This document shows, piece after piece, positions 1-7,220 of a stretch of DNA of 64,000 bases. The notes below the pieces were generated by a model. The model worked only from the letters and a program-made list of their open reading frames with translations. It was not told where the DNA came from and made no database searches. Each line of letters opens with the position of its first letter. Within the stretch, counting starts at the first letter, position 1. The translations under genes and the position numbers were made by a program. Origin of the DNA: Escherichia phage JES2013; the sequence record KC690136. The stretch is one strand, 5' to 3'.

Positions 1-247
1 CCCACACATGTTAACAGACCTGCATGTATGCACTTCTGTTATTGTGTGCACTATGGAGGCCCGGCATCTCGCCCCTCGTAGGCGAGTGCCAATGAAGGGC
101 CGACACTACCCATAGTAAGTAATAAATTTAAAACATGGTACTTAGGATCTAATATATTCTACATAAGTTAAGTATATGTACTTTAGTACCATAAGTACTA
201 GATCTTTTATTTTTTATTATTCAGTTATTTTAGTTATATTCTTTATG

Positions 248-307
248 TGTCCGTATCACGGACAGTTAGTGTCCGTATTACGGGCAGTAGTGTCCGTATC
301 ACGGACA
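248..307. repeat. Three phased copies of a 17-bp palindrome TGTCCGTATCACGGACA (middle copy imperfect), operator-like
   Basis: Copies at about 248-264, 270-286, 291-307, spaced 21-22 bp (two helical turns); perfect inverted symmetry in copies 1 and 3. Confidence 0.6.
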
Positions 308-382
308 GTTAGTGGACTCTGTTCCAGAGCGAACATAAAACATACGAATCCTTATAGTACAGATATTTAAGTTTTTACTGGT

Positions 383-733
383 CTAACCAGTTGTTGACAT
401 CCGAATAACCTCTTCTGGTGGCAAAACTTTGGAAAATGTGCATCTTTTACCTCTCCCTTGTGTGGATGTTTCAACCACCCCCGCACACTCTAAAGTTTTA
501 ACGCACGCTGCTGCTTTTGTTTTCTTTATCCCAACATCTGCTGCAATTTTCCTTGTGCTTGGTGTGAAGCGTGAATTTCCTCCAAGCTTATACCAGTTGT
601 GCAGGTAGCAGTATACAATCTTGTCATACAAGTCAAGAACAACAACCTCTCCAGTTGTGTCATTCAAAACTTTTGACATAGACAGTATTTCAAGGGGGAC
701 TTTAAGATATAGCAGCTTATCCCCATCTTTCAT
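383..733 (-). CDS. Hypothetical protein, possible helix-turn-helix DNA-binding protein
   Basis: 116-aa ORF; segment TRKIAADVGIKKTKAAACVKTLECAGVV looks HTH-like; no firm motif. Confidence 0.4.
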   Translation of the reverse strand: MKDGDKLLYLKVPLEILSMSKVLNDTTGEVVVLDLYDKIVYCYLHNWYKLGGNSRFTPSTRKIAADVGIKKTKAAACVKTLECAGVVETSTQGRGKRCTFSKVLPPEEVIRMSTTG

Positions 734-780
734 ATCTCCTGATTCTCCTTGTGTGGCAATTTTCTTTAAAATAGCAGGGA

Positions 781-1335
781 TTACTCCCCGCTGTCAATAG
801 CAAAACTCATTGCAATACGGTATGCTTCTTCTAATGGTAAGAGTCTCCCCCACACATCCCAACCGACATCAAGCTGCCTGCCAAACAACTGTTGTGTGGT
901 TCCGTGAGCATGACCGAACAGTTGGACTGATCCATGAGGCTTTCTGTTCCACTTTGCAAACTGGTAATGGCTCATACAGATCAAATTCTTGTTGTGGCGA
1001 AGCTCGTAATAATCTACAACCTCGTGATAGAACTCTTTCATAATTCTGACAGTCGTCCTTGTGTCATGGTTGCCACGAACAAGAATAATATGTCCGTTCA
1101 ACATATTTAGAATATCCGGGAGTAAGTTGTTGATATTCTTATCATTAGTGCACGCAATATCTCCCAAGTGGAACACAGTGTCTGCAGGTGACACAACAGA
1201 GTTCCACTCGGCGATGATTCCTGCATTCATACTGTCAAGATTGTGATCATACTGAGATCTGTGTTTTTGACATGAATCAAACTCCATGACCCGCTGGTGG
1301 AGAAAGTGTGTGTCGCTTGTTACAAAGTATTTCAT
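781..1335 (-). CDS. Calcineurin-like metallophosphoesterase (putative 2',3'-phosphatase partner of kinase)
   Basis: Motifs SDTHF, GDIA, GNHD, GHAHG; start refined to internal ATG (MKYFVTSDTHF) with GAGGAA SD; 7 nt downstream of kinase stop. Confidence 0.7.
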   Translation of the reverse strand: MKYFVTSDTHFLHQRVMEFDSCQKHRSQYDHNLDSMNAGIIAEWNSVVSPADTVFHLGDIACTNDKNINNLLPDILNMLNGHIILVRGNHDTRTTVRIMKEFYHEVVDYYELRHNKNLICMSHYQFAKWNRKPHGSVQLFGHAHGTTQQLFGRQLDVGWDVWGRLLPLEEAYRIAMSFAIDSGE

Positions 1336-1342
1336 ACATTCC

Positions 1343-1753
1343 TCATTTAAGTTTAATGCAGTTTTTAAGCTGGCGTTCCATACGATCCACAACCCTGTCT
1401 GGAACATCATGAATGCTTTTATTACCGTGGCGGTTTTCAACCACGATCACGGTATAACTATACCCATGACTGATTGCCATGTCAACATATTCCTGCACAT
1501 GTTTTTCTTTTGTAAACGTATTACTTACCACGATACGGTCGTATCCCATACGCATCATATCTTCTACGTTATCTTTGCACCATTTTGCTGCGAGTGTTAC
1601 TTTACTTGCATCCCAGTTGTAATTGCCGTCATCGTCATACCAGAACATGTCGTTCTCAAAATGTGGATACAGACCTTCTAAAGATAGCGCATTTGCCAGT
1701 GTTGATTTGCCAGACCCTGGCAGACCACGCACGATATATAGCATTTTAGACAT
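1343..1753 (-). CDS. P-loop polynucleotide kinase-like protein
   Basis: Walker A GLPGSGKST near N-terminus; start refined to ATG preceded by GGAGG; adjacent to phosphoesterase. Confidence 0.65.
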   Translation of the reverse strand: MSKMLYIVRGLPGSGKSTLANALSLEGLYPHFENDMFWYDDDGNYNWDASKVTLAAKWCKDNVEDMMRMGYDRIVVSNTFTKEKHVQEYVDMAISHGYSYTVIVVENRHGNKSIHDVPDRVVDRMERQLKNCIKLK

Positions 1754-1853
1754 AGCAATCCTCCGTTTTAATTTTAATGATAGTATACCTAACTGTTTTG
1801 TTAATTTCAAGTGTTGACACTAGGTTATTTGTGTGGCAGGATAGACTGACAAA

Positions 1854-2789
1854 ATGACAAATGAGGAACGTATGATGAAGTATTTTAATGCAGACGATCT
1901 AGTTGACAAAGGTCTTGTAACCAGCAGATATTACCCAGATCTTGGATTAAAGATTTATAAATATGCCAGAAAAGTATTTTACAACAATTTATGGCATTTG
2001 TCCCCTCGTTTGCTGGAGTGCCGAGGCATTGTTGTCGGTAATGAAGGAAATGTTGTGGCATGGCCCTTCACAAAAGTGTTTAACTTGGGAGAAAATCACA
2101 CCAACCTGCCTGACAATAAGCTTGTGACGGCGGTAGAGAAAAAGAACGGATTCCTCGGTGTGGTGTCATCTCATAAAGGTGAACTATTGTTCTCAACAAC
2201 CGGATCTCTTGATTCCCCATATTGTAACCTCGCAAAGGAAACCATCCGGGAGCAATGTGGTAATTTAGATCTTATCAAGAAGGTTATGGGCAATGAAAAC
2301 ATGACATTCATGTTTGAAATTTGTCACCCTTCAGATCCGCATATTGTTCAGGAAGATCATGGCGCATATTTGATAGGTTGCAGATATAATGATTCTGGAA
2401 TAATGCTACCAGAAGCAGCTTTAGATGGGATTGCCAAATACCTTGGCGCAAAACGTCCTCACACTGTGCGTGAAATTCCGTTCAGCTATGCAAAAGAATT
2501 GGCTGCAGAAACAAGAGGTGAAGGGTATATGATTCGTAAGCCTTACTACCCTTATGATCTGCAGCTGAAGATCAAGTCTCCATACTATCTGGCACGGAAG
2601 GCCGTAATGAGGGGTAAAGCTTGGAAGATTTGGGATGATGATATCTTTAAACGTGTTGACGAAGAGTTTTACGGCATGGTAAACTTCATTCGTAGCAATT
2701 ACACAGAAGATGTGTGGAACTGCCTACTGGAGCAGGAACGCAGGGAGATACTCGACCACTATTTCCACAACGAGGACTATATGCAATGA
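1854..2789 (+). CDS. rnlA: RNA ligase 1 (T4 RnlA-like)
   Basis: LECRGIVV and VFNLGEN match T4 RnlA LECRGIMF/FFNLNEN; nucleotidyltransferase motif I EKKNG; FMFEIC motif. Confidence 0.8.
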   Translation: MTNEERMMKYFNADDLVDKGLVTSRYYPDLGLKIYKYARKVFYNNLWHLSPRLLECRGIVVGNEGNVVAWPFTKVFNLGENHTNLPDNKLVTAVEKKNGFLGVVSSHKGELLFSTTGSLDSPYCNLAKETIREQCGNLDLIKKVMGNENMTFMFEICHPSDPHIVQEDHGAYLIGCRYNDSGIMLPEAALDGIAKYLGAKRPHTVREIPFSYAKELAAETRGEGYMIRKPYYPYDLQLKIKSPYYLARKAVMRGKAWKIWDDDIFKRVDEEFYGMVNFIRSNYTEDVWNCLLEQERREILDHYFHNEDYMQ

Positions 2790-3136
2790 AGAAGTTGATT
2801 GTGTGGCTGGATGATTTGAGAGATCCGTCAAATTATGGACTCCCAGACGCTGTTTGGCTGAAGAATTCCTCCGAGTTTATGGATTTTATTAACGATAAGG
2901 GAAAGCTCTACAGACGCGTTTCTGAGTGGCATATGGACAACGACCTAGGAGAAGTATTCGAAGGATATGATTGCCTATCCATGTTGGAGGAAAAATTTGT
3001 ATTCGGTAAGCCTCCCGTGGTTGACAACGTGAAGATTTTCGTACATACTTCTAATCCATCAGCGGCTCGTAAATTCATGCTTGCAGCTGACTCGTTTAAA
3101 AAGTTTGGAATAGAGATTAAACAAAACATCTACTGA
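2786..3136 (+). CDS. Hypothetical protein
   Basis: ATG overlaps rnlA stop (ATGA); 116 aa; no recognised motif. Confidence 0.45.
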   Translation: MKKLIVWLDDLRDPSNYGLPDAVWLKNSSEFMDFINDKGKLYRRVSEWHMDNDLGEVFEGYDCLSMLEEKFVFGKPPVVDNVKIFVHTSNPSAARKFMLAADSFKKFGIEIKQNIY

Positions 3137-3144
3137 GGACACTT

Positions 3145-3906
3145 ATGCGACGACTGATTATTATCTCCGGTGCTGGTTTGAGCGCTGAATCTGGTATTCC
3201 CACTTTCCGATCTGGTAGCACTGCAATGTGGGAGAATTTCAGCATCGATGAGGTGTGCAACATCCACACCTTTGCCAAGAACTACTATAAGGTGCATGAC
3301 TTTTACAATGCACGTCGCGTAGCTCTGGGCAGTGTTGATCCTAACCTTGCACATCTTCGGATCGCTGAGTGGTATTCCCGCTGGTCTGGTCGTGTGATCA
3401 ACCTTACCACCAATGTAGATGATTTGCTGGAGCGTGCTGGTGTAAAACATGAAGATATTTTACATGTCCACGGGTATTTGCCTGAAATCACCTACGAAGA
3501 TGCTGAAGGTAATGATGTAATTAAAAATATCGGATACACGGAGGTAGATACAGGCAAGTATACCTGGGTTAAGCCCAATGTAGTGTTCTTCGGTGAGGTT
3601 GCTCCTAAGTATACAGACATGTATGACCTGTTGACATCTCTCACAAGCAATGATATGGTGATCCTGGTAGGTTGTTCTAACACAGTTATTAATTTTAACT
3701 GGGAATTGTTTCCTGCTACTTGTAAAGGCACAAAACTGCTGATTGTAAACAAGTATGATTCGCAGAGTGCAGATGGAAGTGGCATTTCACGTAGCGACCT
3801 TTATCAATATGAGGATCGCGGGATCCCTGTATGGTTTAACGGTGCTGTTGACGCTTTCTCTGATAAAGTATTTATTGAAACTGTAGAAAACTTTATGGAA
3901 CTTTAA
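3145..3906 (+). CDS. Sir2 family (sirtuin-like) NAD-dependent protein
   Basis: GAGLSAESGIPTFR matches sirtuin GAGxS..GIPxFR NAD-binding signature; TTNVDDL matches TQNID motif. Confidence 0.75.
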   Translation: MRRLIIISGAGLSAESGIPTFRSGSTAMWENFSIDEVCNIHTFAKNYYKVHDFYNARRVALGSVDPNLAHLRIAEWYSRWSGRVINLTTNVDDLLERAGVKHEDILHVHGYLPEITYEDAEGNDVIKNIGYTEVDTGKYTWVKPNVVFFGEVAPKYTDMYDLLTSLTSNDMVILVGCSNTVINFNWELFPATCKGTKLLIVNKYDSQSADGSGISRSDLYQYEDRGIPVWFNGAVDAFSDKVFIETVENFMEL

Positions 3907-3919
3907 AAGGAGACCTTTA

Positions 3920-4633
3920 ATGCTGAATACTAAACTGATCGACAACCTGGAAAAACTGTCTCAGCCTGAAAACTACCTTTGGTCTGCCAACTGGGTGGAA
4001 AACTGGAACCGTGTGGCAGCTAAGGTGAAAAAATCATACACACCATTCGAATTACAGCTTAGCTTCATTGAGGAAGAGTTCAATGAAGTTTTGGAAGAGC
4101 TGGAGAAAGGTGATGGTGGAGATCACTTGCTAAAAGAGGCCTGCGATCTTCATGTTGTCACAAGTTATGCCGCTTATCTTGTTAATGACAATCACGAAAA
4201 GTGGTCAAACCTGTTTGATAATCCACGAGGTATTAAGTTCAAGATTGGTGAGTTCTATGATACACTGATCGCTGCGAAAAACACCTCTAAGCAAAGAGCG
4301 TCTGCTTACCGCTTAGCAGAGTTGTCAACAGCTTTGCTGTTCCAGCTTCGCGGCGATGTGTGCGGGATGATGCGTAAGGTTCTCAAATCGAATGACAGCA
4401 AGTTTGCACGGGTCAACCATCTACGGTATTCACACGGTGCCAGTGCAGATATGCCTGCTGAACAACTCATCGAGTTGGAGATTAAAGATCTTGAGCGACG
4501 CTTTGATGGTCGATATGAAGGTTTTGTTGCTAAGGAAGAATTCTACAACGGTAATAAAGTTATCATATTCCTTGACAGTAAAGGTAAGATCATGAAGCCT
4601 TCAAGCTTCAAGGATGTAACAGAGTATATTTAA
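3920..4633 (+). CDS. MazG-like nucleoside triphosphate pyrophosphohydrolase domain protein
   Basis: EEEFNEVLEELEKGDGGDHLLKEACDL resembles MazG EExxE...E.GD...DL metal-binding helices. Confidence 0.5.
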   Translation: MLNTKLIDNLEKLSQPENYLWSANWVENWNRVAAKVKKSYTPFELQLSFIEEEFNEVLEELEKGDGGDHLLKEACDLHVVTSYAAYLVNDNHEKWSNLFDNPRGIKFKIGEFYDTLIAAKNTSKQRASAYRLAELSTALLFQLRGDVCGMMRKVLKSNDSKFARVNHLRYSHGASADMPAEQLIELEIKDLERRFDGRYEGFVAKEEFYNGNKVIIFLDSKGKIMKPSSFKDVTEYI

Positions 4634-4638
4634 CAACA

Positions 4639-4656
4639 TAGCCGGGATCACCCGGC
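4639..4656 (+). terminator. Stem-loop AGCCGGG-atca-CCCGGCT after gene stop
   Basis: 7-bp perfect stem directly after stop of 3920..4633; weak T tract. Confidence 0.4.
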
Positions 4657-4666
4657 TTTACTTGTT

Positions 4667-5005
4667 GTGGAAAGTATGCAAGTGAGGCAGATAGTTATGT
4701 ACAAGCACTCTAGAGATCTTGAAAACGATGCTGTGTTTGGGGATCAGATGAAAGAGTTGGTTAAACTCATAGGCAGGATAGAGGATAAGTTTGACACTAA
4801 GATCTACATCGACAGCAAAGTATTCAACCACAAAATATGGACAAATCTGTGTGTTGGACTACATGGAGATAAAGATGTTGTAAATTTAGTTGTAATTAGG
4901 TTCATAGTGTGGCAGAATAAAACTATAAATTATTACGATCCACACCTGCTTGTTTACCCGATAAAAGACCTATTAGATAAGGAGGACTGCAATGCCGTTA
5001 TTTAA
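4667..5005 (+). CDS. Hypothetical protein
   Basis: ORF in co-oriented block; start uncertain. Confidence 0.35.
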   Translation: MESMQVRQIVMYKHSRDLENDAVFGDQMKELVKLIGRIEDKFDTKIYIDSKVFNHKIWTNLCVGLHGDKDVVNLVVIRFIVWQNKTINYYDPHLLVYPIKDLLDKEDCNAVI

Positions 5006-5261
5006 TCTTGCTAAACCTGTAGAAGCACACCAGTTTGACGGAAGCTCTTCATCAGTATCTGATCTGCAACGGTGGATTGATACAGGTGTGTTTACATCGT
5101 CACCTGTTCGGACCAGAGATCTTCGTCGTATGTGTGAGCTTGTAGAGCCGTTTGGTAACCTAGTCTTGTACCAGGGTGATTGGCTTGTTGATTTTATGGG
5201 GGACTGGTTGGTAATGAGTAAAGAAGAGATGTTTAAAATTTTTAAGGAAGAGGTAGAGTAA
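4992..5261 (+). CDS. Hypothetical protein
   Basis: 89-aa ORF ending at ligase start. Confidence 0.4.
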   Translation: MPLFNLAKPVEAHQFDGSSSSVSDLQRWIDTGVFTSSPVRTRDLRRMCELVEPFGNLVLYQGDWLVDFMGDWLVMSKEEMFKIFKEEVE

Positions 5262-6544
5262 TGCATCAAATCAAAACAACACTGTACGCACTGAACAAAG
5301 ATGGCAGCTACCAACAGTGGAAAGTATTCACGGATGGTGATAAGGTTATCGTAGAGTTTGGCAAGCTTGATGGTAAACTGCAATACAAAGAGACGATCTG
5401 CACACCTAAGAACGTAGGTCGTGCCAACGAGACTACAGCTGAGCAACAGGCCGAGCTTGAGGCTATCAGTAAGTGGGAAAAACAAGTCCGTCTGGGGTAT
5501 GTTGAAAACATGGAAGATTGCGAGCAGGGTGTTGACCTTTTACCCATGCTGGTGCATGACTATCTGAAGCGTGGCAAGGCACTTAAATTACCTTGCTGGA
5601 TCTTGCGTAAGTTAGATGGCCTTCGTCTGCTTGTTGTTTTCCAAAATGGTGAGCCTAAATTTATTTCCCGTGGTAATAAGTCCTACCCTATTCAAGGAAA
5701 GCTTTTAGAGCAACTTCGTTCTTTCCATTCTACCACTGGGATTAAACAACTTGATGGGGAACTATACATTCATGGTCTTCCTTTGCAGAAAATAGTGTCT
5801 CTTGCTAAACGGTGGCGCACACAGGAAGAGATTCAGGCCGAGATCGATAAAGACTATGAGGCAGATAAAAAACGCCGTCATGCCGCAATTAAGGCAGGCT
5901 TATCAACATACAAAAACTTCAACAAGGTAGATATTCCTGTCGATGTTGATCCTGTTCGTGATGATTTGCGTTACGGTGGGTACTGTAGCTACGATCTGGA
6001 GTATCACATTTTTGATATTCCTAGCGACAAGGTGTGGTGGGATCCAGAAACAGAGTCTGGACGCTGCAAGGATCTTATGGATGCAGAGGATACCGTTACC
6101 ACTCTGATGCTTGACCATATCAAGGTTGTTGACGCAGAGCTTGCGTACACAGTTGATCATTGCGAAGAATCTGTTGGTATATTCATGTCCGAAGGATATG
6201 AAGGTACCATTATGCGTAACTTCTGTGGTAAATATGAGTACGGTCAGCGAACATCTGAAGCATTGAAATGGAAAAAGTTCAACGACGCAGAGGTGAAAGT
6301 TATTGACGTTGAGAAAGATAAGAATGATGAAGGTGTTCTTATCTGTGTTGACAAGGAAGGTATTGTTGTTAAAATGAAGATGAAAGGTACGCACGAGGAG
6401 CGTAGCTATGACAGAATGCAGGAAATGATCGGCAAGTTTGTCACCTTCAAATATCAAGCAAGGACAGAAGACAACAACTACCAATTCCCTGTCGGTATCT
6501 GCGTCCGAAATGTTAACCCAGACACTTGGGAGGTGCTGGAATAA
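5261..6544 (+). CDS. ATP-dependent DNA ligase
   Basis: Motif I KLDGLR (KxDG), EGTIMR (motif IV-like), WKKF (motif V-like). Confidence 0.8.
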   Translation: MHQIKTTLYALNKDGSYQQWKVFTDGDKVIVEFGKLDGKLQYKETICTPKNVGRANETTAEQQAELEAISKWEKQVRLGYVENMEDCEQGVDLLPMLVHDYLKRGKALKLPCWILRKLDGLRLLVVFQNGEPKFISRGNKSYPIQGKLLEQLRSFHSTTGIKQLDGELYIHGLPLQKIVSLAKRWRTQEEIQAEIDKDYEADKKRRHAAIKAGLSTYKNFNKVDIPVDVDPVRDDLRYGGYCSYDLEYHIFDIPSDKVWWDPETESGRCKDLMDAEDTVTTLMLDHIKVVDAELAYTVDHCEESVGIFMSEGYEGTIMRNFCGKYEYGQRTSEALKWKKFNDAEVKVIDVEKDKNDEGVLICVDKEGIVVKMKMKGTHEERSYDRMQEMIGKFVTFKYQARTEDNNYQFPVGICVRNVNPDTWEVLE

Positions 6545-6686
6545 TTTAGGTATGTTTAGTAGCCAATTGAATAAGTGTTTTCAATTTGCACCTACATATG
6601 CCCTGATGTATGAACTGTGCAACCTAGCCACACCACACAGTGGTGCTGATCGGGGCTCGTTATGAGTGAACTGGAGAGTATGAAAA

Positions 6687-7157
6687 ATGAAACTTGATAA
6701 AAATGTTCAACGAAAGGCTTTCTTGGATATGATCGCATATTCGGAAGGCACAGATAATGGTAGACAACCTACCAAGGATCGGGGATACGATGTCATAGTC
6801 GGAGGCAAGCTGTTCAGCGATTACAGCAAGCATCCCGGTGTTTACGTTAAGCTAAATGCTAAACTTACCTCCTCCGCTGCTGGGCGTTACCAGGTTTTGG
6901 AGAAGTTTGCTAAACACTACATGGAACAGTTAGGATTGCCAGATTTTGGCCCTGCCAGTCAGGACAAGATTGCGTTGCAACTGATCCGTGAGTGCAAGGC
7001 TCTCGCCGACATTGACGAAGGGCGTATCCACGAGGCTATCCATAAATGCCGTTCCCGCTGGGCTTCGTTACCTGGTGCTGGATATGGTCAGCATGAACAG
7101 AAGATCGAGAAGTTGATCGAGGTGTTTAAAAAGGCAGGCGGTGTTGTCCTTGATTGA
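6687..7157 (+). CDS. Endolysin, lambda R-type lytic transglycosylase/lysozyme
   Basis: Near full-length similarity to lambda R: QRKAFLDMIAYSEGTDNGRQ, GYDVIVGG, AAGRYQ, WASLPGAGYGQ. Confidence 0.9.
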   Translation: MKLDKNVQRKAFLDMIAYSEGTDNGRQPTKDRGYDVIVGGKLFSDYSKHPGVYVKLNAKLTSSAAGRYQVLEKFAKHYMEQLGLPDFGPASQDKIALQLIRECKALADIDEGRIHEAIHKCRSRWASLPGAGYGQHEQKIEKLIEVFKKAGGVVLD

Positions 7158-7160
7158 TCA

Positions 7161-7189
7161 TTGACATAACCACACGGACGTGGTATTGT
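7161..7189 (+). promoter_or_regulatory. Sigma70-like promoter TTGACA-N17-TATTGT with palindrome CCACACGGACGTGG in spacer
   Basis: Consensus -35, 17-nt spacer; upstream of 7221 ORF. Confidence 0.5.
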
Positions 7190-7220
7190 TACCTCATAAA
7201 ATGTTTAGGAGGGTTTAACC

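Follow-up and report, generated by a model that had tools for sequence, protein, structure and literature searches.

A predicted RNA end-healing and sealing module in Escherichia phage JES2013

The DNA considered here is a stretch of 64,000 nucleotides from Escherichia phage JES2013 (sequence record KC690136), referred to below as the window, near the start of which a small P-loop kinase and a metallophosphoesterase (MPE) are encoded divergently from a ligase of the T4 Rnl1 family. This region appears to be a phage RNA end-healing and sealing module, a reading to which we assign a probability of roughly 0.75 on the basis of the families and folds of the proteins, their catalytic residues, the operon structure, the conserved linkage of the genes and their fusions. 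The three genes are best read as a 5'-kinase, a 2',3'/3'-phosphoesterase and an Rnl1-type ligase, functionally parallel to T4 Pnk/Rnl1. The narrower claim that the module repairs tRNA cut by anticodon nucleases is evenly balanced in our judgement, and is held lower because the C-terminal domain of the ligase is unlike that of T4 Rnl1. What is found here bears out a published computational prediction and is not a new system.

In the proposed mechanism, the substrates would be RNA breaks, for which the candidate sources include anticodon nucleases such as PrrC or RloC, HEPN toxins and colicin-like tRNases. The small kinase would phosphorylate the 5'-OH, and the MPE, possibly after ring opening by a neighbouring cyclic-phosphate processing receiver (cREC) protein, would strip the 2',3'-cyclic or 3'-phosphate to leave a 3'-OH, after which the Rnl1-family ligase would reseal the break using ATP. 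The cREC protein, a zinc-less sirtuin and a MazG-like protein, all encoded in the ligase operon, may act as accessory parts.

Families, folds and catalytic residues of the core proteins

The ligase, encoded on the plus strand at 1854–2789, matches the Pfam family RNA_lig_T4_1 above its cut-off and across the whole model (6.9e-15, positions 1–227), as well as phrog_562 (2.7e-66). Single-sequence searches of the PDB returned nothing useful for this protein or for the kinase, and homologue profiles were needed for both. With a profile of 42 homologues, T4 Rnl1 structures were the sole PDB matches to the ligase (1.8e-12), and within this set K96-x-N98-G99, E155, E223-G224 and K239/K241, which represent motifs I, III, IV and V, are invariant. 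Residues K96/G99, E155, E223-G224 and K239/K241 align with K99/G102, E159, E227-G228 and K240/K242 of the T4 enzyme, and the likewise invariant R57, K74 and F76 are aligned with R54, K75 and F77; these T4 Rnl1 residues have reportedly been found essential in mutagenesis by the Shuman laboratory. The AlphaFold2 model of the ligase (predicted local distance difference test score, pLDDT, 91) has archaeal Rnl3, T4 Rnl1 and fungal Trl1 ligase domains as its nearest structural neighbours, with E-values of ~1e-11, whereas DNA ligases score far worse, the best being the African swine fever virus ligase (1e-5), with LigD and human ligase I above 1e-3. Against the NCBIfam equivalog TIGR02308 the protein reaches 38.8 bits, far under the cut-off of 242 bits, and it is therefore regarded as a member of the Rnl1 family and not as a T4 RnlA equivalog.

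The kinase (136 residues, minus strand, 1343–1753) is a predicted polynucleotide 5'-OH kinase that matches AAA_33 (8.8e-11), phrog_2071 (3.5e-58) and phrog_505, a family labelled 'polynucleotide kinase' (5.7e-10). Its family, made up of proteins of ~130 residues, is very large (at least 8000 candidates in the homologue search), and the invariant positions comprise the P-loop (G10-x-x-G13-x-G15-K16-S17-T18), D35, an SNT motif and an ENRHG motif. The best full-length PDB matches to the kinase profile are Capnocytophaga Pnkp1, tRNA(Sec) kinase, T4 Pnk and the kinase domain of Clostridium thermocellum Pnkp, whereas nucleotide kinases align at the P-loop only. The same division is seen at the level of the fold, since the AlphaFold2 model (pLDDT 82.8) gives query-normalised template modelling (TM) scores of 0.73–0.78 against the Clostridium Pnkp kinase, T4 Pnk and tRNA(Sec) kinase, and of 0.45–0.60 against adenylate, shikimate, gluconate and adenylylsulfate (APS) kinases. 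By profile and fold, the kinase groups with polynucleotide and tRNA kinases and not with nucleotide kinases. With regard to its active site, D35 aligns with an Asp of the 'NRDDFR' segment of Pnkp1, and an hhalign comparison with the T4 Pnk kinase domain places D35 on the catalytic D35 of the T4 enzyme with a probability of 96%. PADLOC also gave weak matches of the kinase to two CRISPR-associated models, CARF_PDDEXK_AAA (5.9e-6) and Csx3-AAA (5e-3), in their AAA-type domains.

The MPE (184 residues, minus strand, 781–1335, with its ATG at 1335) is predicted to heal 2',3'-cyclic or 3'-phosphate ends and matches Pfam Metallophos (6.4e-7) and phrog_547 (2e-51). The motifs by which calcineurin-like enzymes bind metal are all present and do not vary among 35 sequences (D8-x-H10, G58-D59, G88-N89-H90, H123 and G141-H142-x-H144), and the binuclear metal site is intact. 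The top PDB match to its profile is 1xm7, the uncharacterised Aquifex protein aq_1665 (3.5e-29), followed by GpdQ, YfcE, MJ0936 and Rv0805, and up to an E-value of 0.1 no entry named as a Pnkp phosphatase or lambda phosphatase was returned. Where the Pnkp/lambda clade has GDxxDRG, the phage protein has GDIACT, with no DRG, and its alignment with a cyanobacterial MPE domain of the Pnkp type (GDLVDRG) is weak (hhalign probability 63%, 47 columns). There are also weak matches to the ligase-associated PdeM (7e-4, far below the cut-off) and to the 'Nuclease MPE' 6nvo (2.5e-3). Judged by its profile and motifs, the MPE belongs to an aq_1665/YfcE-like clade and not to that of Pnkp and lambda phosphatase. 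In two T5-like phage contigs (L008 and L009), a gene of this MPE clade is found among small early-region genes, beside an NAD-dependent DNA ligase.

These searches bear on what had been proposed from the letters alone. The sequence-only reading had assigned to the three proteins the activities of the T4 Pnk/Rnl1 pathway, and this prediction is supported by their families, modelled folds and catalytic residues, together with the conserved neighbourhood and fusions described below; profile searches of the three proteins, which it had proposed as a check, bring out polynucleotide and tRNA kinases as the best relatives of the kinase and an MPE unlike protein phosphatases. Its description of the phosphatase as being like that of bacterial Pnkp is right as to the metallophosphoesterase superfamily but does not extend to the Pnkp clade, given the missing GDxxDRG and the preference of the profile for aq_1665, GpdQ, YfcE, MJ0936 and Rv0805. 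Its further statement that the host range includes strains with tRNA-cleaving defence, like any tie of the module to anticodon nucleases, is an inference.

Conserved linkage, gene layout and accessory genes

The association of the three genes in other genomes was assessed by scanning IMG/VR with the ligase alignment alone, which gave 80 viral loci at 35–89% identity, and by searching the open reading frames within 6 kb of each ligase with hidden Markov models of the kinase and MPE alignments. A kinase was found in 71 of the 80 loci, an MPE in 62 and both in 56, an association far beyond chance. MPE-ligase-kinase is the gene order in 36 loci and kinase-ligase-MPE in 18. Furthermore, contigs carrying MPE homologues at 49%, 44% and 42% identity have the MPE, an Rnl1-type ligase and an AAA_33 kinase next to one another in three phage backgrounds, and in loci L005–L007 the kinase, MPE and ligase form an isolated three-gene operon. 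The broadly conserved core is this triad and not the sirtuin. In 30 of the 80 loci the RNA ligase has, no more than 6 kb away, a homologue of the ATP-dependent DNA ligase encoded in the window.

In addition to being neighbours, the genes are found fused. Kinase and ligase form a single protein (~430 residues, Pfam AAA_33 plus RNA_lig_T4_1) in 12 viral loci. The fusion genes noted are L050 5530–6822, L057 5527–6825, those of ten further IMG/VR loci, L099 5371–6861 and L110 4726–6864, and they cover both kinase-ligase proteins of ~430–500 residues and the Leptolyngbyaceae triple fusion described below, here of roughly 710 residues. No substitute 3'-phosphatase was recognisable by Pfam in the fusion locus L057. 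A search of 185,579 species genomes located the ligase family at just 33 loci. These include metagenome-assembled genomes of Cardiobacteriaceae, where a kinase-ligase fusion is followed by an MPE of the phage clade, and Leptolyngbyaceae cyanobacteria, where kinase, Metallophos and RNA_lig_T4_1 are joined in proteins of ~680–790 residues (stop-to-stop reading frames). The triple-fusion gene of Leptolyngbya PCC 7375 is 1.6 kb from RtcB and adjoins a Pol-beta nucleotidyltransferase. In the cyanobacterial fusion the MPE domain has GDxxDRG, so that two MPE clades have been joined to the same kinase-ligase pair, which argues that the role they share is 3'-end healing.

With regard to the window itself, the initial 4.4 kb match a Vequintavirus, Escherichia coli O157 typing phage 4 (KP869102), at 100% identity, and more than 100 other rV5-like phages at 96–99%. 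About 20 unannotated GenBank records (MG0656xx) named 'Campylobacter phage', with Campylobacter jejuni as host, are 96–99.7% identical to E. coli rV5-like phages in the regions compared here, and their host labels look doubtful. Gene calls together with Pfam and PHROG matches bear out the arrangement described in the sequence-only reading, in which kinase and MPE lie in tandem on the minus strand, divergent from the T4 Rnl1-family ligase. That reading had drawn a three-gene cassette at 781–3136; the three genes are there, but the module comprises six, since the cREC gene inside those coordinates, the sirtuin gene and the gene for the MazG-like protein had been missed, and the ligase operon runs 1.5 kb further, to a terminator-like hairpin. 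The kinase gene has a GGAGG seven nt upstream of its start, and 7 nt separate its stop codon from the start of the MPE gene. On the plus strand, the cREC gene (2786–3136) overlaps the ligase stop by 4 nt (ATGA), and the spacings between the ligase, cREC, sirtuin (3145–3906) and MazG-like (3920–4633) genes are -4, 8 and 13 nt. The G+C-rich hairpin that closes this operon at 4640–4657, AGCCGGGATCACCCGGCT, has 7 pairs, 6 of them GC, and is detected on both strands; in phage Murica a terminator is annotated at the equivalent position. The flanking features are a helix-turn-helix protein on the minus strand (383–733, from the open reading frame listing and homology) and an ATP-dependent DNA ligase at 5261–6544, 0.6 kb past the operon hairpin and 2.5 kb downstream of the RNA ligase.

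Between the kinase-MPE pair and the ligase operon there is a spacer of 100–121 bp (1754–1874), whose length depends on an ambiguous ligase start, annotated at ATG 1854 in Murica (311 residues) and at ATG 1875 in KP869102 (304 residues). The latter is the more likely in view of a GAGGA at 1863–1867, the MKF... N-termini of homologues and the start chosen in KP869102. The minus strand of the spacer carries TTGAAA-17-TATACT at 1810–1782, upstream of the kinase, and the plus strand a TTGACA at 1814–1819 without a good -10 element. A scan of the spacer found 23 promoter-like sites against 17.5 ± 4.3 in shuffled sequences, and as this is no enrichment, no promoters are claimed. The GC skew changes sign at the spacer (~1750–1850) and again near ~38000, placing the kinase-MPE pair in a leftward gene block and the ligase operon in a rightward block of ~36 kb. 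The leftward block includes a tRNA cluster, located in KP869102, that lies ~2–2.7 kb beyond the start of the window; no tRNA gene was found in the window. The divergent arrangement, although present here, is not general, as the genes are co-directional in 79 of the 80 viral loci and the exception is the Vequintavirus locus. It is a Vequintavirus peculiarity that coincides with the genome-wide strand switch.

Among the accessory proteins, the cREC protein (116 residues) matches PF20274 above its cut-off (1.5e-14) and phrog_1479 (5e-35), and its D9, D10, D51 and H87 are invariant across 7 diverse homologues. The domain was defined in a 2021 paper by Iyer et al. on jumbo phages (PMC7824862), and its function on cyclic phosphates, here that of a metal-independent cyclic phosphodiesterase, is a prediction of the literature (PMC7824862, PMC9503650). 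Its gene adjoins the ligase in Vequintavirus, Mydovirus and Phapecoctavirus (Vequintavirinae and Stephanstirmvirinae). No histidine kinase was present in the phage neighbourhoods of cREC that were examined, and a search for fused domains in a representative library of 1.84 billion proteins gave 119 matches, the longer of which carry no second Pfam domain. In phage ESCO5 (gp119, L012 4995–5339) and several other records, the stand-alone cREC gene is labelled 'putative RNA ligase and tail attachment protein', a mistaken annotation now propagated among Phapecoctavirus entries.

Distant cREC homologues from outside the rV5/phi92 group (28–38% identity) all lie inside tRNA gene arrays. They are encoded in Providencia phage PR1 (L094 3989–4345), Morganella phage Mm5 (L095 3998–4342), Proteus phage PM135 (L096 3923–4270) and Yersinia jumbo phage fHe-Yen9-03 (L097 4004–4366), four phages from three unrelated groups (Demerecviridae, Straboviridae and Eneladusvirus, that is, T5-like, T4-like and jumbo). 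The PM135 gene, for instance, has tRNA-Met and tRNA-Gly as its neighbours, within a series of 14 tRNAs. The pattern suggests a tRNA-related role or co-expression, and is an observation added here, on which the relevant passages of PMC9503650 and PMC7824862 are silent.

The sirtuin (253 residues), encoded 8 nt after the cREC gene, is class-III-like and matches SIR2 (7e-28) and phrog_2162 (1.6e-108). It is nearest to CobB and SIRT5, the closest solved structure being E. coli CobB (1s5p, 3.3e-21), and it keeps the GAGxS NAD-binding motif and the catalytic His, with all four zinc-binding cysteines of CobB absent. It scores under every NCBIfam deacetylase cut-off and does not match the PADLOC models of defence-type NADase Sir2 proteins; GenBank labels it 'NAD-dependent deacetylase/cobB', which probably misstates its function. 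The product of the last gene of the operon (237 residues) is a MazG-like nucleotide pyrophosphohydrolase, for which phrog_671 (5.4e-22) was the only match and Pfam, NCBIfam and PDB sequence searches gave none; an EExxE motif is seen by eye. Homologues accompany the ligase in 12 of the 80 loci, and each of these 12 is in a large genome of the Vequintavirus type.

Iyer et al. (2022) have suggested that the cyclic phosphate may be opened by cREC and that the sirtuin may use NAD+ to take off a 2'-phosphate, much as Tpt1/KptA does. On this basis, RNA repair could include a eukaryote-like branch that depends on NAD+ and operates beside the core through two enzymes without precedent, with cREC opening 2',3'-cyclic phosphates without metal and the zinc-less sirtuin clearing the 2'-phosphate by ADP-ribosyl transfer. 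We consider such a branch unlikely, and 2'-phosphate removal would be unnecessary if the MPE yielded a 2'-OH,3'-OH end. In Klebsiella phage KpS11 (Mydovirus; L013 1–1124) and a related metagenomic phage (L003 1549–4322), NAD-salvage genes, encoding nicotinamide phosphoribosyltransferase and phosphoribosyl pyrophosphate (PRPP) synthetase, lie directly upstream of the module on the opposite strand, which fits either an NAD-consuming step or a shared counter-defence island.

Points against the module and rival explanations

Several observations weigh against the interpretation of the region as an RNA end-healing and sealing module. The closest characterised relatives of the MPE are generic phosphodiesterases (GpdQ, YfcE, MJ0936 and Rv0805), and members of its clade at 40% identity are present in the T5-like contigs (L008 5001–5657, and L009) with no RNA ligase nearby, so that the clade is not tied to RNA ligases alone. 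The kinase has no Arg equivalent to R38 of T4 Pnk, the residue that binds the phosphate 3' of the terminal nucleoside, the window protein having W38 and the family consensus Phe; other invariant basic residues (R9, R108, H109 and H115) might replace it. In T4 Rnl1, tRNA specificity is conferred by the all-helical C-terminal domain (residues ~255–374). The corresponding helical domain of the phage ligase is of ~70 residues in the model (H243–305), against ~120 in the T4 enzyme, and the profile alignment to T4 Rnl1 ends at motif V; tRNA is therefore a candidate substrate of this ligase. A tRNA gene was present at a distance of 6 kb or less in only 16 of the 80 loci, and a tie of the triad to tRNA gene clusters, considered as evidence for tRNA specificity, was rejected on this count. 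The sirtuin, cREC and MazG-like genes co-occur with the ligase in only 10–12 of the 80 loci, all from related large myoviruses with genomes of ~145 kb, and synteny inherited within this group could explain the linkage; that the three act together with the core is drawn mainly from the operon structure here and from the independent contexts described by Iyer et al. Lastly, in the literature on the cassette and on Vequintavirus RNA repair, no biochemical or genetic test of any of the six proteins was found.

Three other explanations were considered. The kinase and MPE could clean 5'-OH/3'-phosphate ends of DNA for the DNA ligase at 5261–6544, as PNKP or bacterial ligase-associated MPEs do, with the Rnl1-like enzyme acting in replication or recombination. 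The weak MPE matches to PdeM and 6nvo would be in line with this, as would the presence of an ATP-dependent DNA ligase within 6 kb in 30 of the 80 loci and also in L003, L004, ESCO5 and KpS11. However, it is the RNA ligase and not the DNA ligase that the kinase and MPE flank or fuse to, the triad has no nearby DNA ligase in the other 50 loci and stands as an isolated operon in L005–L007, the model and profile of the ligase match RNA ligases only, and the cyanobacterial fusion is found beside RtcB; a DNA-end function therefore seems very improbable. Little more credit is given to the view that the genes have unrelated functions and merely share an accessory region, the ligase being a catalyst of tail-fibre attachment (the second activity of T4 gp63) and the kinase and MPE acting on nucleotides or host signalling molecules. 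Database labels such as 'RNA ligase and tail attachment protein' speak for it, the MPE relatives YfcE, MJ0936, GpdQ and Rv0805 are small-molecule phosphodiesterases, and accessory genes abound at the strand-switch point where the region is located. Conversely, the invariance of all the ligase catalytic residues is not obviously needed for tail-fibre attachment, the fold of the kinase groups with polynucleotide and tRNA kinases, and a common pathway is favoured by the three-way linkage and the fusions, seen in unrelated phages and also in bacteria.

The third possibility is a counter-measure in which cREC, the sirtuin, the MazG-like protein and the MPE would act against immune signals based on NAD+/ADP-ribose or cyclic nucleotides (cyclic ADP-ribose isomers, cyclic oligonucleotides or 2',3'-cyclic nucleoside monophosphates), RNA ligation being a separate matter. 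Iyer et al. place cREC and the sirtuin in an NAD+/ADP-ribose network, the NAD-salvage genes are directly upstream in KpS11 and L003, and MazG-type and MPE enzymes are able to hydrolyse nucleotides. We nevertheless rate this as highly unlikely, as the cREC gene overlaps the ligase stop codon and adjoins the ligase across subfamilies, the distant cREC genes inside tRNA arrays point to RNA, the sirtuin matches no model of a defence-type NADase, and the conserved kinase-MPE-ligase core has no obvious signal-degrading role.

RNA end healing and sealing, the preferred reading, has several implications. Bacterial anti-phage systems are now known to attack tRNA and other RNAs frequently, and to our knowledge T4 Pnk/Rnl1 is the sole experimentally established phage repair answer to such attack. 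The cassette would represent a split and widespread alternative, seen in most of the 80 unrelated viral contigs and in bacterial fusion proteins. It is found in members of the Vequintavirinae and Stephanstirmvirinae used for phage therapy and biocontrol, and, if active, would help to explain why these phages are partly insensitive to defences that cleave RNA, in addition to being a source of compact new RNA-end-processing enzymes. The predicted cREC and sirtuin chemistry, if true, would be of real biochemical interest.

Comparison with known RNA repair systems

The eukaryotic pathway of Trl1 and Tpt1 in fungi and plants resembles the phage module in two respects. Structures of the Trl1 ligase domain (6n0t and 9qw7, E ~1e-11) rank with the best matches to the model of the phage ligase, and the combination in this pathway of cyclic phosphodiesterase, kinase, ligase and NAD-dependent 2'-phosphate remover would be paralleled by cREC, kinase, ligase and sirtuin. 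However, the phage module has neither a 2H phosphodiesterase nor Tpt1/KptA, for which cREC and the sirtuin are only putative substitutes.

The bacterial Pnkp systems (Clostridium thermocellum Pnkp/Hen1 and Capnocytophaga Pnkp1-Rnl-Hen1) bring together the three activities predicted for the phage module, namely kinase, metallophosphoesterase and ligase. The Clostridium Pnkp kinase is the closest fold to the phage kinase (TM 0.77), and its domain order is that of the cyanobacterial single-chain kinase-MPE-ligase, which carries the phage-type ligase family. Unlike bacterial Pnkp, the phage module is divided among separate polypeptides, with an MPE from the aq_1665/YfcE clade that lacks GDxxDRG and a ligase of the Rnl1 type, not of the Pnkp ligase type. 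No Hen1 methyltransferase was found among the genes at 1–7200 or in the related loci examined, and this, together with the different MPE clade, led to the rejection of a Pnkp-Hen1 system.

The likeness to T4 Pnk/Rnl1 lies in an Rnl1-family ligase with all its catalytic residues, a homologous kinase and the logic of healing both ends before sealing. Conversely, the phage kinase stands alone at 136 residues and is not fused to a phosphatase, and the 3'-end enzyme is a metallophosphoesterase, the phosphatase of T4 Pnk being of the HAD/DxDxT type. The ligase is ~60–70 residues shorter than T4 Rnl1, with a C-terminal domain of roughly half the size, and the cassette has the extra cREC, sirtuin and MazG genes. 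In T4, the repair of tRNA by Pnk and Rnl1 counters the anticodon nuclease PrrC (Amitsur, Levitz and Kaufmann 1987, cited in PMC12409363).

The closest precedent is a sirtuin-centred phage RNA-repair neighbourhood, designated type 2, in section 3.7.3 of Iyer, Burroughs, Anantharaman and Aravind (2022, Viruses 14:1977; PMC9503650), where it is said to be 'prototyped by Escherichia phage V5 and Proteus phage Mydo' and is independently predicted to perform NAD-using RNA repair, with a sirtuin proposed to be KptA/Tpt1-like. The gene set given there is the same (T4-like tRNA ligase, cREC, nucleotide kinase, sirtuin, MazG pyrophosphatase and calcineurin-like phosphoesterase), as is the phage group, the window being that of a Vequintavirus with the six genes within 781–4633. 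Since the same neighbourhood, with phage V5 as its prototype, is described in that section, the system was already known as an in silico prediction. The two accounts differ in emphasis, as the phosphoesterase is 'occasional' and the sirtuin central in the type 2 description, whereas the core found here is kinase, MPE and ligase (56 of 80 loci), with the sirtuin, cREC and MazG-like genes confined to one group of large myoviruses. What is added here is the triad as core, the kinase-ligase and kinase-MPE-ligase fusions, the non-Pnkp clade of the MPE and the divergent layout specific to Vequintavirus.

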